Positions 19,009-39,462 are shown, counted from the stretch's first letter. The stretch is DNA of 64,000 bases from Hyalangium gracile (GCF_020103725.1 NZ_JAHXBG010000030.1:36337-100336); one strand, 5' to 3'. Made by a program: numbers and translations. Notes: generated from the letters alone by a model not told the origin.

Positions 19009-20682
19009 GTGAGAGAGGCAAACCGTCTGCTGTTGTTGGGCGCGCTCGCGGTGGCGTTCAGCATCGTGGGGTGTGACTGCGGGGGAGATGATCCGCCGCC
19101 CGAAGAGACCCCCGATGGAGGGAGCCAGACGGATGGAGGCGTGCTCCCGGTCCCCGACGCGGGGCCCGGCTCGGAGTGTCTGCTCGAGGGGGCCACGTGC
19201 AGCCGCACCTCCGGCAACCAGTGCTGTACCGGCGTGTGCGGGGACGACGGGCGCTGTCCGCCTCCCAATATCCTGTGCCGCAGCGCGGGCGAGGCCTGCC
19301 AGACGGGCGGCGACTGCTGCACCAACATCTGTGAGAACGGCACCTGCGCCACCAACCTGTGCCGCGACGTGGGCCAGGCGTGCACCGGCGCCGAGCAGTG
19401 CTGCACCAAGGTCTGCACCAACGGCACGTGCGCGGACATCCCCGGCAGCTCCTCCCAGTGCAAGGTGCTGGGCCAGGCCTGCGGGGCGGACTCCGACTGC
19501 TGCTCCACCAACTGCCAGGGCGGCCTGTGCACCCGCGCCTATACCTGCAAGGGCTACGGGGACGTGTGCCAGACCAACGCGGAGTGCTGCGGCAACGCGT
19601 GCTCGGCGCCTCCGGGCGGCGTGGGCCGCTGCGAGTTCGTCACCGGCGGTGGCGGTGGCGGGTGCCGGCAGGACGGCAACCCGTGCTCGGATCCGTCCAC
19701 GTGCTGCTCGCGCACCTGCGTGGATCTGGGCTACGGCGCAACGGTCTGCCAGCCCGTGGGTGGCTGCAAGCTCACCGGCAACTTTTGCGGCGACAACGAC
19801 GACTGCTGCGGCGGCGGCGTGAACCCCAACGGCTCGGTGAGGTGCGCCGGCGGCCGGTGCGACAACGGCAGCGCCTGCAACGGCGTGGGCAACATCTGTG
19901 GCTCCGGCAAGCTGCCTGACGGTGGCACCACGGACATCAACGCCTCGCAGAACTGCTGCGACGGCAAGAAGGCCGTGTGCAAGGTGGACTCGTCCGGCGT
20001 GCCGCGCTGCTTCGGCGGCGGCCAGATCACGGGCTGCAACGAGGGCTACACCGGGACGCCGCCGTGCTGCATCCAGGACAACCAGACGTGCCAGTTCTCC
20101 GATCAGTGCTGCAACGGCGCCCTGTGCCTGCCCAACGGCAGCGGGACGCTGTCCTGCCAGCGGCCAACGTGCTCTCCGCTGGGCTCGTCCTGCCAGAAGG
20201 GCGCGGACGGGGGCTCGGCGTGCTGCGCCGGCACGGAGTGCCGGGCGACGGACGAGGTCAACTTCGCCTGCCAGGCGCCCAGGCCGCCCACCGGGGGCAC
20301 GGATGGCGGCACGGCCGGCCCGGATGGCGGCTCGGGGACGCCGGACGCGGGGCCGACGTGCAAGGCCAACGAGACGGCCTGCACCTCGCCCTCCCAGTGC
20401 TGCTCGGGCATCTGCACGGGCGGTCTGTGCAAGCCGCCCTCCCTGTGCCAGCCGCAGAGCGGGGCCTGCACCTCGGGGGCGGACTGCTGCCAGGGCCTGC
20501 GCTGCGAGGTGCCCAACGGGGCCACCACGGGCTCCTGCCAGCCGGGCGCTACCTGCTCGGCCAGCGGCCAGGCGTGCTCCACCACCAGCCCCTGCTGCGC
20601 CGGGCTGAACTGCCTGGGAGAGAACACCGGCAATACGTGTAATGGCTCGGAGCCCTGTGTCTGCACGGTGATCATCCTGTAG
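19009..20682 (+). CDS. Cys-rich repeat lipoprotein (about 12 tandem six-cysteine modules)
   Basis: Lipobox FSIVGC; repeated pattern C-x3-G-x2-C-x5-6-CC-x3-C-x3-5-C (for example CRSAGEACQTGGDCCTNICENGTC). Confidence 0.75.
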   Translation: MREANRLLLLGALAVAFSIVGCDCGGDDPPPEETPDGGSQTDGGVLPVPDAGPGSECLLEGATCSRTSGNQCCTGVCGDDGRCPPPNILCRSAGEACQTGGDCCTNICENGTCATNLCRDVGQACTGAEQCCTKVCTNGTCADIPGSSSQCKVLGQACGADSDCCSTNCQGGLCTRAYTCKGYGDVCQTNAECCGNACSAPPGGVGRCEFVTGGGGGGCRQDGNPCSDPSTCCSRTCVDLGYGATVCQPVGGCKLTGNFCGDNDDCCGGGVNPNGSVRCAGGRCDNGSACNGVGNICGSGKLPDGGTTDINASQNCCDGKKAVCKVDSSGVPRCFGGGQITGCNEGYTGTPPCCIQDNQTCQFSDQCCNGALCLPNGSGTLSCQRPTCSPLGSSCQKGADGGSACCAGTECRATDEVNFACQAPRPPTGGTDGGTAGPDGGSGTPDAGPTCKANETACTSPSQCCSGICTGGLCKPPSLCQPQSGACTSGADCCQGLRCEVPNGATTGSCQPGATCSASGQACSTTSPCCAGLNCLGENTGNTCNGSEPCVCTVIIL

Positions 20683-20733
20683 CGGGGTCAGGGAGTCGAC
20701 GCGGAGGGCAGGACGGGTTTTGATGCGGGCGCT

Positions 20734-21738
20734 TTGAAGCCCGCACCTTCCGCCACCGCGTCGATCACCCCTGTTCCCTCTCCGAGTGCCGGTCCGCCCG
20801 GACTCTCCAAGCGCGCCCGTCCGCGGCGAGTCATCGCCGTGGGCGGCGGCAAGGGGGGGATCGGCAAGACGCTCGTCTCGGCCAACCTCGGGGTGGCCCT
20901 GGCCCAGGCCGGCATGCGCGTGCTGCTGGTGGATGCCGATCTGGGCGGGGCCAACCTGCACACCTGCCTCGGGGTAGGTCAGCCCAGCGCCACGCTGTCG
21001 GACTTCGTCCGCAACAGCAAGGTGGCCATCGAGAACATCATCATCCCCACGGGCGTGCCGCAGCTGTCGCTGATCGCCGGCGCGCAGGACGTGCTGGACG
21101 CGGCCAACATCAAGTACGCGCAGAAGCAGAAGCTGCTGCGCACGCTGCTGGCCCAGCCGGTGGACTACCTGCTGCTGGATCTGGGCGCCGGCACCAGCTT
21201 CAACACCCTGGACTTCTTCCTGGTGGCGGACCACGGCGTGCTGGTGGTGCTGCCGGAGCCCACCGCGGTGGAGAACGCGTACCGCTTCGTGAAGGCGGCC
21301 TTCTTCCGCCGGCTCCAGCAGGTGGAGGCCCAGTACGGCATCGAGGATCTCGTGGAGAGCGCCCTCACCACGCGCGAGGGAGCGCTGCGCACGCCGCACG
21401 ACTTCATCGCCCAGGTGCGCCAGCAGGATCCGGCGGCGGGGGCGCGGCTGGAGCGGGATCTGCAGTCGTTCCGCATCCGCCTGGTGGTGAACCAGGCCCG
21501 CACGGACGCGGACATGAACGTGGGCACCGCCGTGGTGTCCGCGTGGAAGAAGTTCTTCGGCCTGGAGATGGATGATCTGGGGGCCATTCGTTACGACGAC
21601 GAGGCGTGGCGCGCGGTGCGCAAGCGCCGGCCCGTGCTCCTGGAGCGGCCCGACTCGCCCGCCGCCCTGAGCCTCCAGCGCATCGCCGGGCGTATCCTGA
21701 CCATCGACGGTAACGGCAGCGGTTCCTCCACACCATGA
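20734..21738 (+). CDS. ParA/MinD family P-loop ATPase
   Basis: Deviant Walker A (GGGKGGIGKT) and the overall ParA/MinD fold. The N-terminal about 30 residues are Pro/Ser-rich, so the true start may be further downstream. Confidence 0.8.
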   Translation: MKPAPSATASITPVPSPSAGPPGLSKRARPRRVIAVGGGKGGIGKTLVSANLGVALAQAGMRVLLVDADLGGANLHTCLGVGQPSATLSDFVRNSKVAIENIIIPTGVPQLSLIAGAQDVLDAANIKYAQKQKLLRTLLAQPVDYLLLDLGAGTSFNTLDFFLVADHGVLVVLPEPTAVENAYRFVKAAFFRRLQQVEAQYGIEDLVESALTTREGALRTPHDFIAQVRQQDPAAGARLERDLQSFRIRLVVNQARTDADMNVGTAVVSAWKKFFGLEMDDLGAIRYDDEAWRAVRKRRPVLLERPDSPAALSLQRIAGRILTIDGNGSGSSTP

Positions 21739-23516
21739 AGCCCTTCGAGCAGCAGACCTACTACGAGCTCCTCGAGATCCCCGTCACCGCACCGGAGGCG
21801 GAGATCCGCGCGGCCTATGCGCGCGCGATCGAGACGTACTCGCCCGACTCCGTCGCGGTGTACACGCTGGTGGACCCGGGGCAGATCGACGCCCTGCGCG
21901 CCCGCCTCACCGAGGCGATGGAGATCCTCACCGAGCCGGACCTGCGCGCCGAGTACGATCGGATGATCGGCGTGAGCTCCGGCGCGAGCGCCGTGGTGAC
22001 CCTGGCGCCCGCGCTGGCGGCGGCCGCCCAGGCCTCCTCGCCCCAGGACTCGGCCCCATCCAAGTCCTCCTCCAAAGCCCCCGCGAGCGCGCCGGCTTCC
22101 GCTCCCGCGGCGACGCCTCCCTCGAGCGAGGCGCGCGCTGAGTCGGTTCCTACGGCCGCGGCGCCGGTGCCTGCTCCAGCGCCTGCCGCGCCCGAGCCGT
22201 CTGCTCCGGCGGTGGCTGCTGCCGCGCCCGAGGCTCCGACCGCTCCCGCTCCAGCGGCTGCGTCCCCGGCGACCGCTCCCACCGTCACCCAGGCGCCGGA
22301 ACCGGCCGCGCCCCCGCCGGCGGCGGCCCCCACGGCGACTCCCGCGGAGCCCGCCCCCGCCCAGAAGGGCACGGAGGCCGAGCCACCCCCCGCCATGCCC
22401 ATCGCGCCTCCCGGGCAGTTCGTGCTCCCGGGCGGGGTGACGCCGAGCCAGATCCACGCGGCGTTCCGCAGCTACGCCATCTCCTACGTGCCGGTCCTGG
22501 TGCCTGCGCCTTCGCTGTCCACGGGCTCCGCGTTCTTCTCTCCGTTCTCGCCCCCGGCGCAGACGGAGGCGCCTCCGCCCGCGCCGGAGGTGGCTCAGGC
22601 GAAGGCTGCCGCGCCATCGGCTCCTGCCGCGCCACCCGCTCCAGAGGCCCCTGCCTCCCAGGCTCCGACGCCTGCCACCGAGCCGGCCGAGGCCGCTCCT
22701 CGGACCCCGAGCGTTGCCGCGCCCGTGGCCAGCGCTCCTATCGCCGAGCCTTCCCCGGCCCCCTCGGCTCCTGCCGCCGCGGCGGAGCCCCTGCCCGTCC
22801 CGCCCGCGCAGGCGGCCGCCGAGCCTCCGCGCGCTCCGGAGCCCACGCCCCCGCCCGCGCAGGCCGCCCCCGAGCCGTCTGCTCCCGTGGTCGTGCACCA
22901 CGACGACGACGAGGTCTCCGGCATGCGCGCGCCGATGCCGAAGCCTGGAGAGGGCCCGTCCGCCGCCAGGCCGGCCACTGCGCCGCACGCCCAGCCGGGG
23001 CGGCCCGGCAGAACCTTCGTCACGCCTCCGCCGCTGCCTCTGGGAGGCCGCCGTTCCCACCGCCCGTCGCCCACGGAGCCGCCGGCGGCCACGGCCGCTG
23101 ACGCAGGCAAGGGGAGTGCTCGCCCGGCGCATGCCGCGGGCACGAGCCTGGATGAAGCCCAGCAGCTCGCCCAGGAGTCCGCGATCGCGACGGCCGAGGC
23201 CGCGCTCGCCCAGGTGGCGGCGAAGGCGCGCGAGCCCAGGCCCAAGCCCGTCGAGCTGCCGCCCAACACCGAGTTCAACGGCGAGCTGCTGCGGCGGGTG
23301 CGCGAGAGCCGCAACCTGTCCCTCGCCCAGCTGGCCGAGCGCACGCGCATCTCCTCCAAGCACCTGGAGAACGTGGAAGCCGACCGCTACGCCGCGCTCC
23401 CGGCCACGGTGTACCTGCGCGGCATCCTCATGAACATCGCGCGTGAGCTCGGGCTGGATCCGCTCCGAGTGTCGAGGAGTTATCTGGCCCTGGCCGCGGA
23501 TCCGAAGAAGAAGTGA
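21735..23516 (+). CDS. J-domain-like protein with a long Pro/Ala low-complexity region and a C-terminal HTH (XRE/RodZ-like) domain
   Basis: N-terminal YYELLEIPVTAPEAEIRAAYAR resembles a J-domain. About 350 residues are P/A/S-rich. The C-terminus carries an HTH (LLRRVRESRNLSLAQLAERTRISSKHLENVE). Start overlaps the ParA stop codon. Confidence 0.6.
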   Translation: MKPFEQQTYYELLEIPVTAPEAEIRAAYARAIETYSPDSVAVYTLVDPGQIDALRARLTEAMEILTEPDLRAEYDRMIGVSSGASAVVTLAPALAAAAQASSPQDSAPSKSSSKAPASAPASAPAATPPSSEARAESVPTAAAPVPAPAPAAPEPSAPAVAAAAPEAPTAPAPAAASPATAPTVTQAPEPAAPPPAAAPTATPAEPAPAQKGTEAEPPPAMPIAPPGQFVLPGGVTPSQIHAAFRSYAISYVPVLVPAPSLSTGSAFFSPFSPPAQTEAPPPAPEVAQAKAAAPSAPAAPPAPEAPASQAPTPATEPAEAAPRTPSVAAPVASAPIAEPSPAPSAPAAAAEPLPVPPAQAAAEPPRAPEPTPPPAQAAPEPSAPVVVHHDDDEVSGMRAPMPKPGEGPSAARPATAPHAQPGRPGRTFVTPPPLPLGGRRSHRPSPTEPPAATAADAGKGSARPAHAAGTSLDEAQQLAQESAIATAEAALAQVAAKAREPRPKPVELPPNTEFNGELLRRVRESRNLSLAQLAERTRISSKHLENVEADRYAALPATVYLRGILMNIARELGLDPLRVSRSYLALAADPKKK

Positions 23517-23594
23517 GACGCCCACACCTGCGGTGAAGTAGGACGTGGAAGCAATGTTGACTCCCCGCATTGCCGTGCATATGAAAGAAGTGCA

Positions 23595-23858
23595 ATGACA
23601 GAAGAAGAAAAGGTCAAAGCGATGCGGCTCGCCCGCGCGATCGCCTCGGATATCTCGCTCTACAACGAGCAGAAGATCATCAAGGGCATCGAGCAGGACA
23701 ACCTCTTCGAGATCCTGAAGGACGAGCTGGACGAGGGGCGCGAGCTCTACAAGAGCCGCGTGAGCTCCGAGATCTTCACCCGGGCCAACTTCTTCGAGCG
23801 GGCCATCAACGACATCGTGCTGCGCTCGAAGGCGCACGTGAAGTCGAAGATTTGGTAG
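23595..23858 (+). CDS. hypothetical small protein
   Basis: 87 aa ORF; lower GC than the flanks; no recognisable domain. Confidence 0.35.
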   Translation: MTEEEKVKAMRLARAIASDISLYNEQKIIKGIEQDNLFEILKDELDEGRELYKSRVSSEIFTRANFFERAINDIVLRSKAHVKSKIW

Positions 23859-24796
23859 CCGCCGAGGCGCGCGAGCACCGAGCCCCGCCCGAGGCCCGAG
23901 GCGAGCGGCTGGATCAGCACCTCGCGCGCACGTTCCCCGATCTCACCCGCTCCCGCATCCAGGGGCTGATCGAAGCCGGCCACGTGCTGGCGGACGGTCG
24001 CCCCGCGAAGGCGGCGCTGCGCCTGCGGGGTGGGGAGCTGCTCTGCGTGCACATCCCCGCGCCCGTGGCGGCCGTGCCGCTGGCGGAGGAGCTGCCGCTG
24101 GAGGTGCTGCACGAGGATCGGGACCTGGTGGTGGTGAACAAGGCGGCGGGCATGGTGGTGCACCCGGGAGCGGGGCACGCGTCCGGGACGCTGGTGAACG
24201 CGCTGCTGCACCGGGTGAAGGATCTCGCCGGAGTGGGCGGAGAGCTGCGCCCGGGGATCGTCCACCGCCTGGACAAGGACACGACGGGGTGCCTCGTCGT
24301 GGCGAAGAACGAGAAGACGCTCGTCGCGCTGCAGAAGGCCTTCAAGACGCGCGCGGTGGAGAAGACGTACCTGGCGCTGGTGCACGGGCACCCGAAGCCG
24401 GAGGGGCGCATCGAGACGCTGTACGGGCGGCACCCGGTGCACCGGCAGAAGTTCACGGGCAAGGTGAAGGAGGGCAAGCCGGCCATCACGGTGTTCCGGA
24501 CGCGGGAGCTCTTCGAGGGCGCGGCGCTGGTGGAGGTGGATCTGCTGACGGGCCGCACGCACCAGATCCGGGTGCACCTGTCCGAGTCCGGCCACCCGCT
24601 GCTGTGCGACGCGCTGTACGGCGCGGGGCGCAAGGCGAAGGGCAGGGTGGCCGAGGCGCAGGAGGCGCTGGGGCGTCAGGCGCTGCACGCGTGGCGGCTG
24701 GCCTTCACGCACCCCAGGACGGGCAAGGCGCTGAAGCTGGAGGCGCCCCTGCCCGGGGACTTCGAGTCCGCCATCGCTTGCCTGCGAGGCGCCTGA
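23852..24796 (+). CDS. RluA-family (RluD-like) 23S rRNA pseudouridine synthase
   Basis: S4-like N-terminus and the catalytic HRLDKDTTG motif. Confidence 0.85.
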   Translation: MVAAEAREHRAPPEARGERLDQHLARTFPDLTRSRIQGLIEAGHVLADGRPAKAALRLRGGELLCVHIPAPVAAVPLAEELPLEVLHEDRDLVVVNKAAGMVVHPGAGHASGTLVNALLHRVKDLAGVGGELRPGIVHRLDKDTTGCLVVAKNEKTLVALQKAFKTRAVEKTYLALVHGHPKPEGRIETLYGRHPVHRQKFTGKVKEGKPAITVFRTRELFEGAALVEVDLLTGRTHQIRVHLSESGHPLLCDALYGAGRKAKGRVAEAQEALGRQALHAWRLAFTHPRTGKALKLEAPLPGDFESAIACLRGA

Positions 24797-24805
24797 CGAA
24801 GCCGG

Positions 24806-25555
24806 TCAGATCTGCGCCGAGCCGCCATCGGCGAACAGCTCGACGCCGTTGATGAAGCTGCTGTCGTCCGAGGCGAGGAAGGACACCACCTTGGCGATCT
24901 CGTCCGGCTGACCCAGCCGCCCCAGGGGAATGGTGGACAGCAGCTGGGCCTTGAGCTGCGCCTTCTGCTCCGGCGTCTTCGCCAGCGAGTCGAGTCCCGG
25001 GGTGTCGATCGGCCCGGGGCTGACGACGTTGACGCGGAGCTTTCGCTCCTTCAGCTCGAGGATCCACGAGCGGGCGAAGGATCGCACGGCGGCCTTGGTC
25101 GCGGCGTACACGCTGAAGGCCGCGACGCCCTTGATGGAGACGTTCGAGGCATTGAGGATGATCGAGCCGCCCTCGCGCAGCAGCGGGAGCGCCTTCTGCA
25201 CGGTGAAGACCACCCCCTTCACGTTGCTGTCGAAGGTGGCGTCGAAGTGCTCCTCGGTGATGTCGCTCAGCGGGAGGAACTCGCCGCCGCCGGCGTTGGT
25301 GAAGAGGATGTCGATGTGCCCGGCCTCCCGCTTCACCGTGGCGTACAGCCGGTCCAGATCGGCGAGCTTGGAGGTGTCGCCCTGCACGCCGATGGCGTTC
25401 TTTCCAATCCGCTTCACCGCCGCGTCCAGCTCGCCCTGACGCCGGCCCGTGATGAACACCCGCGCTCCCTCGTTGGCCAGGCGCTGTGCCGCGGCGAAGC
25501 CGATGCCCGAGGTACCACCCGTGACGACAGCCACCTTCCCTTGGTGCTTGCTCAT
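24806..25555 (-). CDS. SDR family oxidoreductase
   Basis: TGGTSGIG Rossmann motif and NAG...Y-x3-K catalytic signature. Confidence 0.85.
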
Positions 25556-25618
25556 GACCTTCCGTCCTTTCGACCGCCGAGCCCGGCTTGCCTTCGCTTC
25601 CGCCCGGCTCTACATCTA

Positions 25619-25670
25619 TTGATGACGGTCACCATCATTGGTTGCGGCTCTTTAATGATGACCGTCATTT
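25619..25670. promoter_or_regulatory. two related imperfect palindromes (TGATGAC-G-GTCAcCATCA and ATGAC-C-GTCAT) in the SDR/TetR divergent intergenic region; candidate TetR operators
   Basis: Inverted repeats read directly from the sequence, located between the divergent genes. Confidence 0.4.
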
Positions 25671-25719
25671 TAGTTGTCAACCGAACCTGCTCCGCTCTCG
25701 GGCGGAAGGAGGAGGAACG

Positions 25720-26313
25720 ATGCGACTCACCCAGGAGCAGGCGGCGGAGAACCGCCGGAAGATCCTCGAGACCGCGGGGCGGCTCTTTCGGGAGCGCGGG
25801 TTCGATGGAGTGGGGGTCGCGGACCTGATGAAGGCCGCGGGCTTCACGCACGGGGGCTTCTACAACCACTTCCCGTCCAAGCAGGCGCTGGCCGCGGAGG
25901 CCTGCTCGGGAGCCTTCGAGCGATCGGCCTCGAAGCTGGCGTGTGAGCTCGAGCAGGCACCGGCCCGCGCCTGGAGGGACTTCCTGGAGCACTACCTCTC
26001 ACCCGAGCACCGCGATGATCCCGGGCAGGGGTGTACCCTTGCCGCGCTGGCGGCCGACGCGGGGCGGCAGGGCAAGGAGGTCCAGGAGAGCTTCTCCGAG
26101 GGGCTCGAGAAGGTCTTCGCGCTGGCCCAGGAGCACCTGTCCACGGCGGCTCCCGACAAGCGCAAGGGGACGGAGGCCTCGACGCGCGAGCGCGCCATCC
26201 AGATGATGAGCGAGGTGGTGGGCGCGGTGGTACTGGCCCGCGCGGTGGCCGAGGCCGACCCGGAGCTCTCCGACGAGATCCTCGAGGCGAGCCGGCGCAA
26301 GTTCCTCAAATGA
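25720..26313 (+). CDS. TetR family transcriptional regulator
   Basis: N-terminal TetR HTH (GFDGVGVADLMKAAGFTHGGFYNHF); RBS GGAAGGAGGAGG upstream of the ATG; divergent from the SDR gene. Confidence 0.85.
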   Translation: MRLTQEQAAENRRKILETAGRLFRERGFDGVGVADLMKAAGFTHGGFYNHFPSKQALAAEACSGAFERSASKLACELEQAPARAWRDFLEHYLSPEHRDDPGQGCTLAALAADAGRQGKEVQESFSEGLEKVFALAQEHLSTAAPDKRKGTEASTRERAIQMMSEVVGAVVLARAVAEADPELSDEILEASRRKFLK

Positions 26314-26343
26314 GGGGGAAATCTCGCCCGGCCGCTCCCGGAT

Positions 26344-27888
26344 TTGACCCCCAGTATCGCCGAACCAACGCGGCGTGTCATGATGATCCCCGCAGCCGTG
26401 ATGCGGAGGATCTCGATGAGAAGGATGCTCGTCCCGGGGCTGTTCGACGACTATGCCGTCGCGCCCGGGACCTTCGATGAGCTGTTCGAGGCCAGTGGTA
26501 CCGCCCGCTCCCACTTCCTCCGCATGTTCGCCATGCTGGCGGGGCGCAGCGCCGAGGAGTTCGCCCGCATCCAGGCGCTGGCCGAGCGGGCCCTGCTGAA
26601 CCAGGGCGTCACCTTCTCGGTGTACTCGGACTCGCGGGGCACCGAGAAGATCTTCCCCTTCTGCCTCATCCCCCGCATCGTCTCGAGCGTGGACTGGATG
26701 CGTCTGGAGCGCGGGCTGGAGCAGCGCACCCGGGCGCTGGGCCTCTTCCTGGATGACGTCTACGGCCCGCAGCGGATGCTCGCGGAGCGGCCCGAGCTGC
26801 GAGACATCGTCCTGGGCACGAAGCTGTACCTGCCCCAGCTGCGCCACGTGCGGCCCCCAGGCGGCGTGCGCATCCACGTGGCGGGCATCGATCTCATCCG
26901 GGACGAGCGCGGCACCTTCCGGGTGCTCGAGGACAACCTGCGCACCCCGTCGGGTGTCTCCTACGTGATGGAGAACCGCATCATCTCCAAGCGGGTGATG
27001 CCGGAGATCTTCGAGCAGGCGCGGATCCGCCAGGTGGACCACTACCCCGCGCGGCTGGCGGAGACGCTGCGCGCCGTCTCGCCCGAGGATCCCGAGCACT
27101 CCACGCTGGTGGTGCTCACGCCCGGGCCCTACAACTCCGCCTACTTCGAGCACTCGTTCCTGGCGCGCACCATGGGCGTGGAGCTGGTGCAGCCGGCCGA
27201 TCTCTTCGTGGAGCGCGATCAGGTGTTCGTGCGCACCACCCGGGGGCCGCGCCGCGTGCACGTCATCTACCGGCGCATCGATGACGCCTTCCTGGATCCC
27301 GAGGCCTTCCGCCCGGACAGCCTGCTGGGCGTGCGCGGGCTGATGCGGGCGTACGCCGCGGGCAACGTGGCGCTGGCCAACGCGCCGGGCAACGGGGTGG
27401 CGGACGACAAGGCCGTGTACGCCTTCGTGCCGGAGATGATCCGCTTCTACCTCTCCGAGGAGCCGCTGCTGGAGCAGGTGCCCACCTACGTCTGCGCGCG
27501 CAGGCAGGAGCGCGACTACGTGGTGGATCACCTGGAGCAACTGGTGGTGAAGGCGGTGGACGAGGCCGGTGGCTACGGGATGCTGATGGGCCCGCAGTCC
27601 ACGCCCGAGGCGCGCGAGGAGTTCCGCGCCCGCATCCTCGCCGAGCCGCGCAAGTACGTGGCCCAGCCGCGTGTGGAGCTGTCCACCTGTCCCACGTGGG
27701 ACGCGGGGAAGGGCAGGGTGGCGCCGCGCCGGGTGGATCTGCGGCCCTACATCCTCACCGGGCCGCAGGGCCCGTGGGTGCTCCCCGGCGGGCTGAGCCG
27801 GGTGGCGCTGCGCGAGGGCTCATACGTCGTGAACTCCAGCCAGGGGGGTGGCTCGAAGGACACCTGGGTGCAGCGGGAGGTCGCATGA
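26344..27888 (+). CDS. circularly permuted type-2 ATP-grasp protein (COG2308/DUF404 family)
   Basis: Family-typical sequence (VTFSVYSD...FPFCLIPRIV; NAPGNGVADDKAVYAFVPEMIRFYL). Confidence 0.8.
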   Translation: MTPSIAEPTRRVMMIPAAVMRRISMRRMLVPGLFDDYAVAPGTFDELFEASGTARSHFLRMFAMLAGRSAEEFARIQALAERALLNQGVTFSVYSDSRGTEKIFPFCLIPRIVSSVDWMRLERGLEQRTRALGLFLDDVYGPQRMLAERPELRDIVLGTKLYLPQLRHVRPPGGVRIHVAGIDLIRDERGTFRVLEDNLRTPSGVSYVMENRIISKRVMPEIFEQARIRQVDHYPARLAETLRAVSPEDPEHSTLVVLTPGPYNSAYFEHSFLARTMGVELVQPADLFVERDQVFVRTTRGPRRVHVIYRRIDDAFLDPEAFRPDSLLGVRGLMRAYAAGNVALANAPGNGVADDKAVYAFVPEMIRFYLSEEPLLEQVPTYVCARRQERDYVVDHLEQLVVKAVDEAGGYGMLMGPQSTPEAREEFRARILAEPRKYVAQPRVELSTCPTWDAGKGRVAPRRVDLRPYILTGPQGPWVLPGGLSRVALREGSYVVNSSQGGGSKDTWVQREVA

Positions 27889-28868
27889 TCGCGCGAGTGG
27901 CGGAGCTTTGCTTCTGGCTCGGGCGCTACCTGGAGCGCGCCGAGAGCACGGCCCGGGTGCTCCAGGTGACGGGGACGCTGGCGCTGGATGCGGGGCTGGC
28001 CCCCGAGCAGTGCTGGCGGCCGGTGCTGGCCGTCTTCGGCGAGCGGCTGCGCTTCGCCTCGCGAGGCGCCAGCGCGGCCGAGGACGACGGCGAGCAGGTC
28101 CAGCGCTTCATGGTCTGGGATGAGGACAACCCCTCCAGCATCCAGGCCTCGGTGGCCGCGGCCCGGGAGAACGCGCGCGCCATCCGCGAGGTGGTGAGCA
28201 TCGAGTGCTGGGAGGTCATCAACGAGCTGTTCCTGTGGATGCGCGGCGAGGAGGCGAAGGAGGAGTACGCCCACCACCGCTACGGCTTCTACCGGCACGT
28301 CCGCCGCTCGGTGCAGCTGTGCCTGGGGCTGTTGCGCAGCACCATGCTGCACGACACGCCCCTGGACTTCATCTGGACGGGCGTGCTGCTGGAGCGGGCG
28401 GGGCAGACGGCGCGCGTGCTGGATGTGCACCACCACGCCTTCTCGCAGCTTCCGAGCGGCCACCAGGTGGTGGAGACGTCGCTCTGGCTCTCGCTGCTGC
28501 GGGCGTGCTCGGGCTTCGAGCCCTTCATGAAGCGCCACCAGGGCCGCGTCACGGGCAACGCGGTGGCGGCGTTCCTGCTCTTCGAGCAGGAGTTCCCGCG
28601 CTCGCTGCGCTACTGCCTGAAGTCGGCCCACAAGTACCTGATCGAGTTCCACCCGCCTGGCACGCAGGGGCTGCCCGGCGCCGAGACGGTGGCCCTGAGC
28701 ACGCGGCTGCTGGAGCGGCTCCAGCCGACGGCGCTCTCGGCTCCCGGAGCCACCGTGCACGGGCTGCTCACACAGGTGGTCGAGGACACCGGCGCGCTCT
28801 GTGACATTCTGGCCGCTGAGTTCTTCGGGGCGGCAAGAGCGCTGGGCTCACAGGCGATGGCCCAGTAG
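27885..28868 (+). CDS. alpha-E domain protein (COG2307/DUF403 family)
   Basis: MIARVAELCFWLGRYLERAE N-terminus typical of the alpha-E family; ATGA overlap with the upstream ATP-grasp gene. Confidence 0.75.
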   Translation: MIARVAELCFWLGRYLERAESTARVLQVTGTLALDAGLAPEQCWRPVLAVFGERLRFASRGASAAEDDGEQVQRFMVWDEDNPSSIQASVAAARENARAIREVVSIECWEVINELFLWMRGEEAKEEYAHHRYGFYRHVRRSVQLCLGLLRSTMLHDTPLDFIWTGVLLERAGQTARVLDVHHHAFSQLPSGHQVVETSLWLSLLRACSGFEPFMKRHQGRVTGNAVAAFLLFEQEFPRSLRYCLKSAHKYLIEFHPPGTQGLPGAETVALSTRLLERLQPTALSAPGATVHGLLTQVVEDTGALCDILAAEFFGAARALGSQAMAQ

Positions 28869-28880
28869 AGTCCCGCGGCC

Positions 28881-30641
28881 ATGCCCAACCTCCTCGCCAT
28901 GTCCTTCGAGGGAGAGCTCGCGCCCAGCCTGGACCTGCGGTGCCTGGCTCCCGGCAACAAGCCTCCGGACGGCTGGGGCGTGGGCTACTACCCGGGCAGC
29001 GAGCCCGCCGCGGCGGTGCTCAAGGAGCCTCGGCCGCCTCCGGGGGGCAGCATCCGCAGCGAGCTGGTGAAGGCCTGGGAGCACCTGGAGTCCTCCCTGC
29101 TCCTGCTGCACATCCGCACGGCGAGCTGGGGCGCCATCACCGACGCCAACACCCAGCCGTTCTGCCGCAGCTACGCGGGGCGGGACTGGCTGTTCGGACA
29201 CAGCGGCACCCTGCGTCAGGCCGTGCAGCTGCCCGTGGACCCGGCCTTCGAGCCGGTGGGCTCCAGCGACTCGGAGAGCGTCTTCTGCGCGCTGCTGAGC
29301 TGGATCCAGGCCTCTGGCTGGAAGCGGCTGGGAGACGTGGATCTGGAGCGCCTGCGGGCCTGGCTCGAGGAGATGAACGGCCTGGGGCCGCTCACCGTGG
29401 TCTTCACGGACGGACACGATCTCTGCATCTACGCGGACCGGGAGCAGTCCACGAAGGCGTGGATGTGGCGGGTGGCGCCGCCCTACGAGCGGCTGGTCAT
29501 CGGCGATGACGACGTCGAGGTGGACCTGACGAAGCGCGGGGCCAAGAGCCGCAAGGGCGTCATCTTCAGCACCCAGCCCATCGAGTCCCGCACGGCGGAG
29601 GTGAAGGCGAACTGGACGCCCATCGTCCCCGGAGGGCTGGTGATGGTGCGGCAGGGCGCCATCCGCGCCGAGGTGCTGCCGCCTGGCGTGAAGCGCGAGC
29701 CGGGTAAGGACACCAGCACCGCCGCCGAGCTGGCCGCGCGCGGCACCCTGAGGCGGCCTCCCGTCGCGCCGGTGCGAGTCATGGACGTGCGGCACCGCAC
29801 GGTCTACCGCTACGAGCGGCCCGTGGAGCGCAGCGCCCACGTGCTTCGGCTGACGCCGGTGCATGACCGGCTGCAGAGCCTGCGCTCGCACGAGCTGCGG
29901 ATGTCGCCGGGGGTGCTGCAGAGCGAGTACGAGGACGTCTTCGGCAACCATGTGCGCAAGGCGCTCATCGAGACGCCCTACACGGAGCTGGTCATCGAGG
30001 CGAACTCGCGGGTGGAGCTGCGGGACACGGATCCGCTCGGCCACCGCGCGCCCCACATCCGCACGACGTTCCCGGTGCTGTGGATGCCGTCGCAGCAGGT
30101 GATGCTCCAGCCGTACCTCCAGCCGCCGCCGCTGCCGGACAGCGAGCTGGAGGAGCTGCTCGAGTACGCGATGAGCTTCGCGCGCCGCAACGACTTCGAT
30201 CTGCTGGACACGCTGCTGGACCTCAACTTCAGCATCTACAAGGAGTACCAGTACATCCAGGGGGTGACGCACCTGAACACGTCGGCGTTCGAGGTGTACT
30301 CGGCGCGGCGCGGCGTGTGCCAGGACTTCACCAACCTGTTCCTGTGCCTGGCGCGGCTGCTGGGGCTGCCGGCGCGCTACACCTGCGGCTACATCTATAC
30401 GGGCCCCAAGCACGCCAACACGCAGCAGGCGGAGGCCTCGCACGCGTGGGCGCAGGTGTACCTGCCCGAGCGAGGCTGGAGGGGCTTCGATCCCACCAAC
30501 GGCGTGCTCACGCAGACGAACCACGTGCGCGTGGCCACGGGGCGGACGCACCGGGACGCGACGCCCACCTCGGGCACCATCTACGTGGGCGGCAGCATCG
30601 AGCGGCTCGAGGTCACGGTCGTCTGCGAGCCCGTCGAGTAG
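28881..30641 (+). CDS. fusion protein: class-II glutamine amidotransferase-like (YafJ-like) domain, bacterial transglutaminase N-terminal domain, and transglutaminase-like core
   Basis: N-terminus MPNLLAMS...DGWGVGYY...HIRTASWG...NTQPF resembles YafJ/GATase_6 but has Pro where the Ntn nucleophile Cys should be. The middle region is VRHRTVYRYERP. The C-terminal transglutaminase core has Cys/His/Asp (RRGVCQDF...SHAWAQVY...FDPTNG). Confidence 0.8.
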   Translation: MPNLLAMSFEGELAPSLDLRCLAPGNKPPDGWGVGYYPGSEPAAAVLKEPRPPPGGSIRSELVKAWEHLESSLLLLHIRTASWGAITDANTQPFCRSYAGRDWLFGHSGTLRQAVQLPVDPAFEPVGSSDSESVFCALLSWIQASGWKRLGDVDLERLRAWLEEMNGLGPLTVVFTDGHDLCIYADREQSTKAWMWRVAPPYERLVIGDDDVEVDLTKRGAKSRKGVIFSTQPIESRTAEVKANWTPIVPGGLVMVRQGAIRAEVLPPGVKREPGKDTSTAAELAARGTLRRPPVAPVRVMDVRHRTVYRYERPVERSAHVLRLTPVHDRLQSLRSHELRMSPGVLQSEYEDVFGNHVRKALIETPYTELVIEANSRVELRDTDPLGHRAPHIRTTFPVLWMPSQQVMLQPYLQPPPLPDSELEELLEYAMSFARRNDFDLLDTLLDLNFSIYKEYQYIQGVTHLNTSAFEVYSARRGVCQDFTNLFLCLARLLGLPARYTCGYIYTGPKHANTQQAEASHAWAQVYLPERGWRGFDPTNGVLTQTNHVRVATGRTHRDATPTSGTIYVGGSIERLEVTVVCEPVE

Positions 30642-30902
30642 CCGTCGCGCGAGGTGCTCCAGGATGGAGCAACCTGGCTCAGTCTGGAGCAGGCGAGAGA
30701 TCCAAACTGGGCGGGAATTCCTCCGTTTTCGAGCGGCTCCCGTCTGAAACGGCGTGGGCACGCGGCTGGCATTGAGGGGCGGTGAACTCTCACCGAGCAG
30801 GTATCCCTGTGCCCCCCCTCGAACAACAGCAGCGAAGCCATCCAGCGCATCTCCCTGAAGAACCGCGAGTACGCTTACATCGAGGACGCGAACCGCGGCG
30901 TC

Positions 30903-33098
30903 GTGCTGGTGGAGATCGGCCCCAAGGTCCTGACGCTGGAGGCCCACCTCACGCTCGTGACCAAGAGCCGGATGATCGAGCTGGGCACGGGCAGCTGGTG
31001 CGTCGTGCGCAACCCGGTGGTGCGCGAGGGTGGCAAGGTGTCGCTCGACGACTTCGGCCAGGCCCGCATCGCCGTGGGCGATCGCGAGGTCCGCGTCGGT
31101 CCCCAGGTGTTCCCGCTCTACCCGGGCGAGGAGCTGGAGGGAGAGATCACCCCCGAGTACGTGCTCGGCGTCTACGACGCGCTGCGCCTGCGGGCCCTCA
31201 CGGCCTTCAGCGATGAGCGGGCTCCGGGTGGGCCGCGCACGCGCGAGGCCGGTGACGAGTGGCTGGTCCGAGGGCCCGGACGCTACGTGCCCAGCGCGGC
31301 GGTGATCGTCGTCTCCGCGGAGAAGGCGCGCGTCCTCAAGGAGACGGAGTACTGCGTCGTGCTGAACCCGGTGGACCGGACCACGGGGAAGATCCAGGAG
31401 GGCCGCCGCAAGGTCATCTCCGGCCCGGACGTCTTCTTCCTGGAGCCGGGCGAGGCGCTGGAGGGAGACGTCCGCCGCAAGCACGTGCTGTCCGAGATGC
31501 AGGGGCTCAAGCTCCAGGCGCTCGATGACTTCTCCGAGACGGAGGAGGGCGGGGAGCTTCGGACGCGCAAGGCGGGTGACACCTGGATCGTCCGGGGCCC
31601 GCGGACCTACGTGCCCAACGAGCGGGTGCTGATCCACAAGGAGATCGTCGCGCTCTCGCTGGGGCAGGGCGAGGGCCTGTACGTGAGGGATCTGCGCTCC
31701 GGCAAGGTGTCGCTGGTCCAGGGCCCGTGCCAGTTCATGCCCGAGGCCCACCAGGAGCTGCACGAGAAGCGGCTCTCTGCCGACGCCGAGGCGCTGCTGG
31801 GGCTGGCTCCGGCGCAGCAGGGCGCGCACCTGGCCGCCGTGGATGGGAAGGACGCCAAGGCGCCACGCCCGGCAGCCGCGTCCGCGGAGCGGATCGACCG
31901 CACGCGAGCCATCGTCCTGCGCATCGAGGACAACACGGCGGTGCTGATCAACGACTTCGAGACCAACCACGCCCGGGTGGAGTTCGGCCCGGCGAAGGTG
32001 ATGCTGCGCCCGTACGAGGACGTGACGGTGCTGGATCTGTCCGGCGGGACGCCCAAGCGCCCCAGGCAGCTCAAGGTGCTCATGCTGCGGCTGGGGCCGG
32101 ACTTCGCCACGGACTTGTTCGAGGTGGCGACGAGGGATCACGCCCGGCTGCGCATCAAGCTCTCGTACAAGTGGCAGTTCGACGTGGAGGGGGACTCGGA
32201 GAAGGACAAGGCCATCTTCCGGGTGAACGACTTCATCGGGTACGTGTGCGAGAACCTCGCGTCGCGCATCCGCCAGGTGGCGGCGGAGAACGACTTCGAG
32301 ACGTTCCACAAGAACGCGAGCGTGCTCATCCGCCGGGCCATCTTCGGCGTGGATGAGGCCGGCAAGGCGCGCAAGGATCGGCTGTTCTCCGAGAACCAGC
32401 TGCGCATCATCGACATCGACATCAAGGACATCGCTCCGGTCGATGACAAGACGGCGCTCAAGCTGCGCGAGGCCATCGACACGAACATCCAGATCCAGCT
32501 GGATGCCTCGAAGCAGGAGGCGCAGGCGTCGGCGGAGCTCAAGCGCATCCGGAGCGAGGAGGAGAAGCAGCTGGCGGACATCTCCAGCCACCGGAAGTCG
32601 GAGGCCGAGCGGCAGTCGCTCATCGAGCTGCAGAACAAGAACCACCAGCTGGCCACGCTGAGCCACGCCAAGGTGGAGGCGGAGGCGCAGCTCGAGAAGG
32701 CTCGGGTGGAGAGCGAGGAGGCGCTGGCCCGCGCGGAGGCAGAGGCCCGGGCGTCCCGCATCCGCACCGAGGCGGAGCTGGAGCGCGAGCGGCTGATGAG
32801 CGAGGTGGCGCTGGAGCGGCAGAAGCGGATGAACGATCTCGAGGTGGACCGGCAGGCGCGGCTCGCCGCGGTGGAGGCCGATCAGTTCCGCAAGCGAGTG
32901 GAGGCGCTCGGGGGCGGAGAGAACTTCGTCAAGGCGGTGGCGGCCCAGGCGCAGGCGGCGGTCGTCGGCGGGCTGGACAAGGTGGTGTTCCTGCCCACTG
33001 GCTCCAACCTCAACCTCTTCGACTCCATGCAGGGGCTGCTGGGGCCTGGGAGCCGCAACGCCCTCGCGGCGGACAAGGGCGCCGGCGGTACGAACTGA
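30903..33098 (+). CDS. major vault protein (MVP) homolog
   Basis: Repeated MVP-repeat modules (FPLYPGEELEGEITP; REAGDEWLVRGPGRYVP; RKAGDTWIVRGPRTYVP); shoulder-domain match (LGPDFATDLFEVATRDHARLRIKLSYKWQFDV compared with eukaryotic LGPDFFTD...DHARLQLQLAYNWHF); coiled-coil cap-helix region. The GTG at 30903 is the first canonical in-frame start, but conserved N-terminal residues are encoded upstream of it, back to the stop codon at 30783. Confidence 0.8.
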   Translation: MLVEIGPKVLTLEAHLTLVTKSRMIELGTGSWCVVRNPVVREGGKVSLDDFGQARIAVGDREVRVGPQVFPLYPGEELEGEITPEYVLGVYDALRLRALTAFSDERAPGGPRTREAGDEWLVRGPGRYVPSAAVIVVSAEKARVLKETEYCVVLNPVDRTTGKIQEGRRKVISGPDVFFLEPGEALEGDVRRKHVLSEMQGLKLQALDDFSETEEGGELRTRKAGDTWIVRGPRTYVPNERVLIHKEIVALSLGQGEGLYVRDLRSGKVSLVQGPCQFMPEAHQELHEKRLSADAEALLGLAPAQQGAHLAAVDGKDAKAPRPAAASAERIDRTRAIVLRIEDNTAVLINDFETNHARVEFGPAKVMLRPYEDVTVLDLSGGTPKRPRQLKVLMLRLGPDFATDLFEVATRDHARLRIKLSYKWQFDVEGDSEKDKAIFRVNDFIGYVCENLASRIRQVAAENDFETFHKNASVLIRRAIFGVDEAGKARKDRLFSENQLRIIDIDIKDIAPVDDKTALKLREAIDTNIQIQLDASKQEAQASAELKRIRSEEEKQLADISSHRKSEAERQSLIELQNKNHQLATLSHAKVEAEAQLEKARVESEEALARAEAEARASRIRTEAELERERLMSEVALERQKRMNDLEVDRQARLAAVEADQFRKRVEALGGGENFVKAVAAQAQAAVVGGLDKVVFLPTGSNLNLFDSMQGLLGPGSRNALAADKGAGGTN

Positions 33099-33195: not shown

Positions 33196-33603
33196 ATGGC
33201 CATCGCAGAAGTCCACGTACGCATCGGGAAGCTGCTCGCCGCCATCGACGAGCTGCTGGAGACGTCCTCCACCGACATCCGGCTGATCGAGCGGGTGGTC
33301 GATCTGGCTCGCTGGTCGAAGCTCTACATCGACCTGGAGCTGGCCTATAAGCCCTACCGGGACGTCCGGGATGCCGAGTGGACGACGCGGAAGTTCACCA
33401 CGGAGGAGAGTGCGCGAAAGCTCCTCGTGGAGTTCCGCGACACGCTTCGCGACGTGGAGGCGTCGACGACCGGCCACGTCGAGCAGCGCAACCTGCGAGC
33501 GCGAGTCGAGGGCGTGCTGAACGTCACGCAGGAGTGGTGGAAGCAGTCGGCCGAGAAGAAGCAGGGGAGCGCTACCGGGGCAGGCGGGACTCGACCTGCT
33601 TGA
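33196..33603 (+). CDS. hypothetical protein
   Basis: 135 aa ORF; no recognisable domain; its start is embedded in the right arm of an inverted repeat. Confidence 0.4.
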   Translation: MAIAEVHVRIGKLLAAIDELLETSSTDIRLIERVVDLARWSKLYIDLELAYKPYRDVRDAEWTTRKFTTEESARKLLVEFRDTLRDVEASTTGHVEQRNLRARVEGVLNVTQEWWKQSAEKKQGSATGAGGTRPA

Positions 33604-34753
33604 GGTGGCGCTGTGCCTGGGTGAGAGCCTTCTCCGTGGCCTGGGCCTGCTGCTCCACGCGCGAGACCTCCTCCGCCTGGGCGCGTTCAGCCTCCACAGC
33701 CGCCGCCAGCGTCTCGCGAGCCTGACGGGCCTGCTCCTCCGCGGTCTCGAGCGCCTCACGGGCGCGCCGAGCTCGGGCCTCCGCGGCTTCGAGGGCACCG
33801 CGTGCGTAGCGGCTCTTCGCCTCCGCGGTCCTGAGCACGGCCTTCGTGCGCACCACCTCCTGGCGTGAGAGCCGCTCGGCTCGCTGGGCCTCCGCTGCCT
33901 GCTGTCTGGCGTCCCGCCGGAGCTGTCGGAGCTCCACCTCGCGCTCGCGGCGCGTCTCGGCCCTGGCCTCGTCACGGAGCTGGCGCTTGGAGGGGCGGGG
34001 CGGAGATGCCGGCCGCTTCGGTGGTGGCGGCGGACGCGCTGGGGCTTTCTCCTCGCGAACACGAGGCGTCCAGGGGCCATGCAGCACCTTGCCGCCGGCG
34101 GGAGTCGAAGGCTCCACGGACTTCGCCGGGCGCTGACTCGGGGGCGGCTTTGCGGGTCTGCGAGGGGCGCGCTCCGGCAGCGGGCCGACGAGCTCCAGGG
34201 CCGAGAAATCCCCGAACCCTCCCGAGCTTCGCAGCGGCCGCGTCAACATGCCCTGAGTCAGCATGGTTCGCTCCTCTTCCGAGCCGAGGGAGGCGGTGCG
34301 CAGCGTCTCGTCGACCTGGCGGATGAGCTCGCCCGAGGGTGGGCGGCCCGTGGCGGCCAGCGAGTCGTTGACGTCCTTCATCAAGGCATCGAGTGCCCGC
34401 TGGAAGGCGCGGTTGGCCTCCTTGAGCGGCTCCGCCGCCAGCCCGGACATGGCCCGGCGCTGAGCCTTCTCGAGGTCACGGGCGGCGGAGAGGAGCTCCT
34501 CGATGTGATCCGGGTGCTGGTGGGCCAGCTGATTGACGACCCAGGCGGTGACGACGGGGCGCTTGAGCTTGCGAATGGCCTGCGCGTCCTTGGATTGACC
34601 CTTTGACGCGAGTTCCTTGGCGAGAGCGTCGCGGGCCCGGGTGAAGTCCGAGAGGGGCAGGGCGTAGAGCTCCCGCTGCCGAGCCAGGAGTTCGGCTCCG
34701 TTACTCCCCCGCTTGCCCCCCGATCGAGGGGGCGCTTTCGAGTGAGAAGCCAC
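33572..34753 (-). CDS. hypothetical protein (Pro-rich centre, C-terminal Arg/Glu/Ala coiled coil)
   Basis: 393 aa ORF with plausible codon usage; no recognisable catalytic domain. Confidence 0.5.
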   Translation of the reverse strand: MASHSKAPPRSGGKRGSNGAELLARQRELYALPLSDFTRARDALAKELASKGQSKDAQAIRKLKRPVVTAWVVNQLAHQHPDHIEELLSAARDLEKAQRRAMSGLAAEPLKEANRAFQRALDALMKDVNDSLAATGRPPSGELIRQVDETLRTASLGSEEERTMLTQGMLTRPLRSSGGFGDFSALELVGPLPERAPRRPAKPPPSQRPAKSVEPSTPAGGKVLHGPWTPRVREEKAPARPPPPPKRPASPPRPSKRQLRDEARAETRREREVELRQLRRDARQQAAEAQRAERLSRQEVVRTKAVLRTAEAKSRYARGALEAAEARARRAREALETAEEQARQARETLAAAVEAERAQAEEVSRVEQQAQATEKALTQAQRHLKQVESRLPR

Positions 34754-38205: not shown

Positions 38206-39096
38206 CTACTGGGCGGCGGCGGTGGTCTCGGGATCCACCTCGGCCATGAGCGCGGCCAGCTCCGCCTTGAGCTTGTCCTTGGCGCGGATCTCCAGCTGGC
38301 GGGCGCGCTCGCGCGAGAAGCCGAAGTGCTCGCCCAGCTCCTTGAGCGTCATGGGGCGCTCGTTCATGACTCGCTGCTCGATGATGAAGCGCTCGCGCGG
38401 ATCCAGCCGCATGAGGGCGGTGCGCACGCGGGTGTTGATGAGGCCCGCCTCCTCCTTGTCGGCGAACTCGTCGTCCTGCGGAGCGGAGGCGCTCACCACG
38501 AAGTCCACGTGGCTGTTGCCGCCGTCCTCGCCCATGGGGGCGTCCAGGGACAGGTCCCGCCCGCCCATGCGCTGCTCCATCTCGCGCACCTCGCCGGGCT
38601 TCACGTGGAGCTTCTTGGCGATGTCATCCACGTTGACGATGGCGCCGTCCGGCGTGCCGAACTTCTCCAGCTCGCGGCGCGTGCGCGCCAGACTGAAGAA
38701 CAGCTTGCGCTGGGCCTGCGTGGTGCCGAGCTTCACCAGCGACCACGACTTGAGGATGTAGTTCTGGATGTAGGCGCGGATCCACCACACCGCGTAGGAG
38801 ATGAGCCGGATGCCCTTGTCGGGGTCGAACTTCTGCACGGCCTTCATCAGGCCGATGTTCCCCTCCTGGATGAGATCGCTCATCTTGATGCCGTAGGAGC
38901 GGTACTCGTAGGCCACCTTCACGACGAAGCGCAGGTTGGAAGTCACCAACCGGTGGCCCGCGGACAGGTCGCCCTTGATGAACTTCCGGGCCAGCGTCTG
39001 CTCCTCCTCCACGGAGAGCAGGGCGTACTGGTTGATCTCCGAGAGGTACATCGCCAGGGAGCCGGAGTTGGACGACTGCTCGTGGGTGTTCTGCAT
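38206..39096 (-). CDS. RpoH-like (sigma-32 family) RNA polymerase sigma factor
   Basis: Sigma-70 regions 2 to 4 plus the RpoH box [19 protein letters not shown]. Start at MQNTHEQ. Confidence 0.85.
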
Positions 39097-39462
39097 GGTT
39101 GATTTCTCCCGACGTGGGGCCTCTGAGGGCCGGTGGAGTGGGTTGGCACCGCTTGACGACCGCACGCTCCATGCCATGAGCAACCGCGGTGCCAGCCTCG
39201 TTTGCGAAAAATCCCCAGGAAGAGCGGGGGGTTGACTCGGAGCCTGCGCGGACCGGATTGACAGGGTGGAAACCGTTACAGGCCACCGCCGGAAACCCCG
39301 GTCCACTCGGGCTGTAGAACTTGCGCCATTTTCAGCCAGGCACCTCCAAGCCCAGGGGATGAGATGGTGCGTGCGTCCCTGCTTTCCAACCCTGTAACGG
39401 GGTGGGCTTGTGTCGTCCGGAGTCGTTTACGTGCTCGAACGCTCGAGGGCCGAGCGGGCGGC

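Follow-up and report, generated by a model that had tools for sequence, protein, structure and literature searches.

A 64,000-nucleotide stretch of Hyalangium gracile DNA (hereafter the window; GC content ~70%) was analyzed for the relationship between two neighbours on its plus strand: a three-gene cassette that encodes a circularly permuted ATP-grasp protein, an Alpha-E protein and a transglutaminase-like protein, and a gene that encodes a bacterial homologue of the vault protein MVP. The initial annotation of this region had proposed that the cassette modifies the MVP-like protein or, alternatively, that the two are unrelated neighbours. By comparative analysis, the second proposal was favoured, as the triad was found to be kept alone in other contexts. 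The first was contradicted by the absence of the cassette from 79 of 80 MVP loci, by close relatives that lack the whole block carrying it, and by a conserved upstream region that belongs to MVP itself. We estimate a probability of about 0.85 that the cassette is an autonomous amide-ligase module located beside a separately controlled MVP gene, and the adjacency of the two is most likely a lineage-specific accident of genome rearrangement, not functional coupling.

Organization of the cassette and the MVP gene

The genes under study are as follows (window coordinates).

26416-27888, plus strand: circularly permuted ATP-grasp amidoligase, COG2308 type (Pfam); reading frame open from TTG 26344
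27885-28868, plus strand: Alpha-E protein, COG2307 type (Pfam Alpha-E, PF04168, E 8e-77; exact protein WP_224248933.1)
28881-30641, plus strand: fusion of a GATase_4-like domain, Bact_transglu_N and a transglutaminase-like core (Pfam; exact protein WP_224248934.1)
30903-33098, plus strand: MVP homologue as annotated (731 aa, start GTG 30903), with an ancestral GTG at 30809 (Pfam)

Direct reading of the sequence revealed the three same-strand cassette genes to be packed as the initial annotation had described, with the ATP-grasp stop and Alpha-E start overlapping as ATGA at 27885-27888 and the Alpha-E stop (TAG, 28866-28868) followed by 12 bp and then ATG 28881. The families named for the triad (circularly permuted ATP-grasp, Alpha-E and transglutaminase-like) were likewise correct by Pfam. 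The open reading frame (ORF) at 26344-27888 matched CP_ATPgrasp_2 (PF14403, E 3e-159) and CP_ATPgrasp_1 (PF04174, E 1e-138), both over their full length, and its start is most likely ATG 26416 rather than 26344, since GGAGGA is located 5 nt upstream of this ATG and the resulting 490 aa fit homologues of 490-491 aa. The third gene was indeed transglutaminase-like, with an N-terminal GATase_4 domain that had been missed. The downstream same-strand gene was confirmed as an MVP homologue by its Vault repeats and shoulder domain: ORF 30903-33098 matched Vault, Vault_2, Vault_3, Vault_4 and MVP_shoulder (PF01505, PF17794, PF17795, PF17796 and PF11978; E down to 2e-45) and also has a C-terminal coiled-coil/helical region. 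Exact protein matches for window genes were WP_224248933.1, WP_224248934.1 and WP_224248935.1.

When the region of 26.3-33.1 kb was examined with a codon-position GC filter, the GC at third codon positions (GC3) was 0.94-0.95, as in real genes, for plus-strand ORFs only. A 1476-aa antisense ORF failed this GC3 filter and was read as a high-GC shadow. PADLOC defence models gave no match for any of five proteins.

The cassette is absent from nearly all other MVP loci

An alignment of 18 diverse bacterial MVPs was used as the query and scanned against one genome per prokaryotic species. The scan returned 80 MVP loci, 24 from Myxococcota and 56 from cyanobacteria, Chloroflexi and other metagenome-assembled genomes (MAGs). 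Each locus was taken with up to 10 kb of flank per side where the contig allowed, some contigs providing only 2-6 kb.

By tblastn with all window proteins, the cassette was detected within 10 kb of MVP at only one of these loci (L002, from H. versicolor). It was absent at the remaining 79, that is, at all 56 non-myxobacterial loci and at 23 of the 24 myxobacterial ones. The four-gene neighbourhood, for which the initial annotation had suggested a conservation check, was thus limited to a single MVP locus of the set and was missing from close relatives that share the same backbone. Two such relatives, L003 and L005, have MVPs 93-94% identical to that of the window and the same order of ParA, DnaJ/HTH and RluA genes, MVP, and HD and HEAT genes. 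By blastn, both loci aligned to window positions 20000-24786 and resumed at 30654 (L003) or 30656 (L005), the junction consisting of 10 locus-specific bp in L003 and 29 in L005. Since the alignment skips exactly this span, the following block is an insertion or deletion.

24787-30653, no strand assigned: 5.87-kb variable block with genes for a short-chain dehydrogenase (SDR), a TetR-family regulator, the ATP-grasp protein, the Alpha-E protein and the GAT-like/transglutaminase fusion (blastn)

Other Hyalangium species carry still different sequence at this site. H. minutum has the same backbone with a HisKA/HATPase (histidine kinase) gene in the slot (L090, 7879-8862). In H. versicolor, the block is present and a further 916 bp separate its transglutaminase gene from the MVP upstream region (L002, 8840-9755); this stretch has two ORFs, one Cys-rich and lipoprotein-like and one for a DUF6968 protein. 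Within Hyalangium, the slot between rluA and MVP is hypervariable, being empty, filled by a kinase gene, filled by SDR, TetR and cassette, or filled by the latter plus two ORFs.

Outside this genus, MVP was found between ruvA and ruvB in Melittangium and Vitiosangium and in yet another context in Corallococcus. No conserved MVP partner was identified when the flanking ORFs of the 80 loci were clustered, as clusters reached the non-myxobacterial set in one locus at most. Flank clusters among the myxobacterial loci were considered as MVP partners and rejected, as they reflect genus-level synteny and antisense shadow ORFs.

MVP appears to have its own conserved promoter

The 260 bp located 5' of the conserved MVP N-terminal codons were aligned for the window and 22 myxobacterial loci (L001-L022). 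Similarity across genera was found to start abruptly at window position 30656, ~14 bp past the transglutaminase stop, whatever gene precedes. The conserved region includes an A/T-richer stretch and the following elements.

30658-30668 and 30701-30711, no strand assigned: CCA-N3-TGG palindromes, with a third at ~30680 that is degenerate in the window (alignment of the 23 regions, pattern search)
30757-30771, plus strand: sigma-54-type -24/-12 element GGCACGCGGCTGGCA, ~38 nt upstream of the ancestral MVP start

GG-N10-GC spacing is a hallmark of sigma-54 promoters. The element, of the form GGCACG-N4-TNGCA (also written GGCAYR-N4-TNGCA), has this spacing. It occurred at a constant distance in 22 of the 23 myxobacterial MVP loci and was the sole match in the 64-kb window, compared to 0.22 expected by chance. 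The third palindrome (~30680) was present in some relatives. Because upstream conservation starts right after the cassette and is found in 22/23 loci whatever precedes, an independent MVP promoter is indicated. MVP thus seems to be served by a conserved sigma-54-type promoter of its own, and the conserved pattern suggests that its expression is activator-dependent and sigma-54-driven, with the CCA-N3-TGG palindromes as candidate activator-binding sites upstream of the promoter. Independent promoters had been named in the initial annotation as evidence that would speak against coupling, and the putative element with its palindromes, in 22 of 23 loci, points to one for MVP.

The gap between the cassette and MVP (30641-30809) was searched for an intrinsic terminator by consensus scan and RNA fold, and none was detected. 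The fold of 30642-30810 was no more stable than that of shuffled sequence (z = -0.65), and for this reason the palindromes were read as protein-binding sites, not as a terminator.

The cassette occurs in other genomes with unrelated flanks

The order ATP-grasp, Alpha-E, fusion protein was found with unrelated flanks in five other loci (L081, L082, L084, L088 and L091), which belong to Melittangium boletus, Corallococcus, Sorangium cellulosum, a Hyalangium MAG and a distant metagenomic relative. The cassette adjoins PTPS and SDR genes in Melittangium and is followed by an amino-acid permease gene in the Hyalangium MAG. In Melittangium and Corallococcus, which have MVP as well, the cassette is located elsewhere than the MVP gene. 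The cassette was also found in Sorangium, a genus from which two MVP searches returned no match. Beside the triad of the distant metagenomic relative is a divergent 1095-aa Bact_transglu_N/Transglut_core/DUF2126 protein (L091, 109-3396). No DUF2126 transglutaminase adjoins the window triad, the rest of the window not having been scanned for one.

The third protein carries a degenerate amidotransferase-like domain

GATase_4 spans residues 1-275 of the fusion protein (window 28881-29705; E 3e-67; profile positions 1-267 of 272) and is followed by Bact_transglu_N (PF08379; residues 302-379, E 2e-22) and Transglut_core (PF01841, E 6e-18). Over 1,400 relatives were retrieved with the fusion protein at E <= 1e-10; residues were counted in the best 120, all of them full-length fusions. 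The transglutaminase-like triad Cys480-His521-Asp537 is intact in the window and invariant in these 120 homologues, and the domain aligns with PDB 3isr, a putative cysteine protease.

The GATase-like domain begins MPNLLA. Residue 2, present in 119 of the 120 homologues, is Pro in 110 and Leu in 9 and never Cys. At the position of the oxyanion motif HNG, which PDB 1te5 carries, the window protein has HSG; the central residue is Ser in 108 homologues, Ala in 11, Gly in 1 and never Asn. The HxR, NTxPF and TDSE motifs of the domain align with PDB 1te5, and R79, N90-T-Q-P-F94 and D130 are invariant in the 120 homologues. From the motif alignment and general knowledge, we take R79 and D130 to be the equivalents of GlmS Arg73 and Asp123. 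In GlmS, these two residues hold the alpha-carboxylate and alpha-amino groups of glutamine. With the nucleophile Cys and oxyanion Asn gone, the GATase-like domain, judged by its residues, cannot be a Cys-dependent amidotransferase. It is under strong constraint, and the simplest reading of this pattern is a binding module. The NCBI name 'class II glutamine amidotransferase' probably overstates its activity, as MPNLLA and HSG replace MCELLG and HNG. By NCBIfam, only a sub-threshold EgtC match (TIGR03442) was obtained for this domain.

A search of 1.8 billion cluster representatives revealed a gradient of GATase-like relatives by start residue and motif. At one end were canonical stand-alone relatives with an MCELLG start, HNG and identity of <=33%. 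Relatives at 30-44% identity had an MS or MT start with HNG kept; several of these were fused to a transglutaminase-like domain, and one fused relative sits in the same triad (L091). The myxobacterial end of the gradient was marked by an MPNLLA start with HSG or HAG. The relatives with MS or MT starts may act in place of Anbu, as Ntn hydrolases with a Ser/Thr nucleophile.

Relationship to known systems and a possible mechanism

The ATP-grasp/Alpha-E/transglutaminase triad is the core of the Anbu operon (PMC3235984, Valas and Bourne 2008; PMC5666114; PMC6376114). Passages in PMC5666114, PMC6376114 and PMC3495828, citing Iyer et al. 2009, describe the triad as a predicted peptide/amide-ligation or tagging system, which agrees with the peptide ligation system named in the initial annotation. 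The transglutaminase-like protein is predicted as a peptidase in passages of the same three papers and of PMC3235984. Release of phosphate from ATP by a Yersinia member of this ATP-grasp family is the sole experimental activity in the 2008-2017 papers, and neither a substrate nor a stable complex has been found (PMC6376114).

The window cassette resembles the Anbu operon in its three families, their order, the tight packing on one strand and the intact Cys-His-Asp triad. It differs in having no separate Anbu (proteasome beta-like) gene; the stretch from the transglutaminase gene to the MVP promoter region has no gene at all, and no proteasome-family Pfam match was found in the flanks of the five other cassettes. 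Instead, the transglutaminase-like protein has another Ntn-fold domain, GATase_4, as an N-terminal fusion, which in the myxobacterial clade is without its nucleophile (Pro/Leu for Cys) and oxyanion Asn. Compared to class-II amidotransferases of the YafJ/EgtC type (PDB 1te5 and 3mdn), the window domain matches GATase_4 end to end, but the YafJ/EgtC-type proteins start with MCELLG and carry HNG whereas the window protein has MPNLLA and HSG. The window cassette is a further member of a known, biochemically unsolved kind, and represents a subtype with a class-II-amidotransferase-like fusion.

In a possible mechanism, the ATP-grasp protein would activate a carboxylate as an acyl phosphate and join it to an amine, most plausibly to give a gamma-glutamyl-type amide, whether on a peptide, a protein or a small molecule. 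Alpha-E may act as a partner or adaptor of the ligase. The fusion protein would reverse or process the amide bond through its Cys-His-Asp transglutaminase-like centre, with the degenerate amidotransferase-like domain probably only binding the gamma-glutamyl moiety. The last role is suggested because the domain has kept its contacts to the alpha-amino and alpha-carboxylate groups of glutamine while losing the nucleophile and oxyanion Asn. An inactive amidotransferase-like domain, maybe a gamma-glutamyl-binding module, narrows the guesses on the substrate of Anbu-type triads.

Vault repeats, a shoulder domain and a coiled coil at the C-terminus are common to the window MVP and eukaryotic MVP, the former being shorter (~760 aa vs ~850-890 aa). 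The window MVP is without conserved partner genes, and the preprint on bacterial MVP homologues (bioRxiv 10.1101/872010) contained none of the gene-context terms searched for. Among the papers searched, no microbial one was found to link vault proteins with the triad, the 'vault' papers retrieved being on human proteomics or autoimmunity.

Alternative explanations for the adjacency

If the cassette acted on MVP, it could, for example, attach and trim a tag (peptide or glutamyl) on the shell of the vault, with the four genes forming one unit at least in the lineage of H. gracile and H. versicolor. The layout is compatible with such a unit, as all four genes are on the same strand with ~167 bp from the transglutaminase stop to the ancestral MVP start, the adjacency is common to two species and no terminator was detected between. 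We nevertheless regard this as very improbable: the cassette is missing from 79 of 80 MVP loci, including close relatives with identical flanks, is parted from MVP by two unrelated ORFs in H. versicolor and is without an adjoining MVP in five other contexts, and MVP keeps what appears to be its own conserved promoter region. Furthermore, the C-terminal tail of MVP, the usual target of tagging ATP-grasp proteins, varies among close homologues. If true, a cassette that was recruited beside MVP in this lineage and now sets and removes a gamma-glutamyl or peptide mark would represent the first case of an enzymatic system modifying a prokaryotic MVP, and its action on MVP would provide a first functional handle on bacterial vault-like proteins. 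A weaker form of coupling, in which the two are co-expressed by read-through and functionally independent, the insertion having put an extra promoter before MVP, also draws on the shared strand, the short gap and the lack of a recognisable intrinsic terminator. Terminator prediction is unreliable in 70% GC genomes. The insertion left the MVP palindromes and sigma-54 element intact, suggesting that native control is still used, and we consider co-expression by read-through unlikely.

A further alternative concerns the substrate of the cassette. It may be that the cassette makes or salvages a gamma-glutamyl amide or short peptide metabolite and is co-transcribed with TetR in a TetR-controlled island that includes the SDR gene. 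The TetR gene is on the same strand ~100 bp upstream, and TetR, SDR and cassette were gained or lost together. EgtC, a relative within GATase_4, acts on small gamma-glutamyl compounds, although the TIGR03442 match was weak. The PTPS and SDR genes beside the Melittangium cassette are consistent with a small-molecule substrate, and no candidate substrate protein was found to be conserved beside the triad. By contrast, TetR-type operators were detected only in the SDR-TetR intergenic region and not before the ATP-grasp gene, TetR and SDR are absent from the cassette flanks in Corallococcus, Sorangium and the Hyalangium MAG, and published work leans towards a function in tagging with proteins or peptides, as yet experimentally unproven (PMC3495828, PMC6376114). 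Action on a small molecule is therefore put forward tentatively, as a possibility that we hold to be somewhat doubtful.

Several points weigh against the reading of the cassette and MVP as unrelated neighbours. Both H. gracile and H. versicolor have kept the adjacency, and with no terminator found in the gap, transcripts begun in the cassette may run on into MVP. Co-occurrence of cassette and MVP was read from 20-kb loci and not from whole genomes, the sigma-54 promoter was called from sequence conservation alone, and the gamma-glutamyl reading of the fusion protein derives solely from which residues are conserved. The main value of the finding is negative: since the comparative data argue against coupling, the cassette neighbourhood is unfit for inferring MVP function. 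A route to when and why MVP is expressed may be provided by its conserved sigma-54-type promoter and palindromes.

The start codon of MVP and the distribution of MVP genes

Homologous MVPs (757-766 aa) begin with MPPSNNS, 31 codons upstream of the annotated start of the window MVP. The start of these homologues aligns with GTG 30809-30811 of the window, which is followed by a run of seven C (30812-30818) compared to six in L002, L003 and L005. The seventh C places GTG 30809 out of frame with MVP, which accounts for the NCBI annotation of 731 aa from GTG 30903. The extra C could stem from missequencing of the homopolymer or be a real frameshift near the N-terminus, and the C7 run needs checking ahead of expression work. 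The gap of about 260 bp given in the initial annotation holds for the annotated start (261 bp from 30641 to 30903); to the ancestral start at 30809 the distance is instead ~167 bp.

The window MVP was 35-39% identical to the vertebrate MVPs listed. The 56 MVPs from cyanobacteria, Chloroflexi and other MAGs were ~36-40% identical to it, like the vertebrate range. MVP genes were also seen in a few MAGs labelled Actinomycetota, Planctomycetota or beta proteobacterium, perhaps as a result of binning errors.

Flanking genes and the SDR/TetR pair

The remaining features of the region are listed below.

20683-21738, upstream of the cassette: ParA
21735-23516, upstream of the cassette: DnaJ/HTH protein
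23852-24796, upstream of the cassette: RluA-type pseudouridine synthase
24806-25555, minus strand: SDR, divergent from TetR (Pfam adh_short_C2, E 4e-58)
25619-25671, no strand assigned: pair of operator-like palindromes ATGATGACNGTCAT between the SDR and TetR genes
25720-26313, plus strand: TetR-family regulator; ORF opens at 25588 (Pfam TetR_N, E 6e-15)
33196-33603, plus strand, and 33572-34753, minus strand: two genes without Pfam match, downstream of MVP
38206-39306, minus strand: sigma-70-family gene
39463-42006, minus strand: second, unrelated membrane transglutaminase of the TgpA type (TgpA_N, Transglut_core, DUF4129)

Based on alignment with H. versicolor, the TetR protein likely starts at ATG 25720, with GGAGGAGG just before. 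With <=2 mismatches allowed, the 64-kb window held no match beyond the two copies of ATGATGACNGTCAT, which are conserved in H. versicolor. Both probably serve as TetR operators for the divergent SDR/TetR pair. At the same threshold, no site of this type was found ahead of the ATP-grasp gene. Farther downstream of MVP, the order is an HD-domain gene, a HEAT-repeat gene, the sigma-70 gene and the TgpA-type membrane transglutaminase gene. The last two belong to the conserved backbone and are also found in H. minutum.

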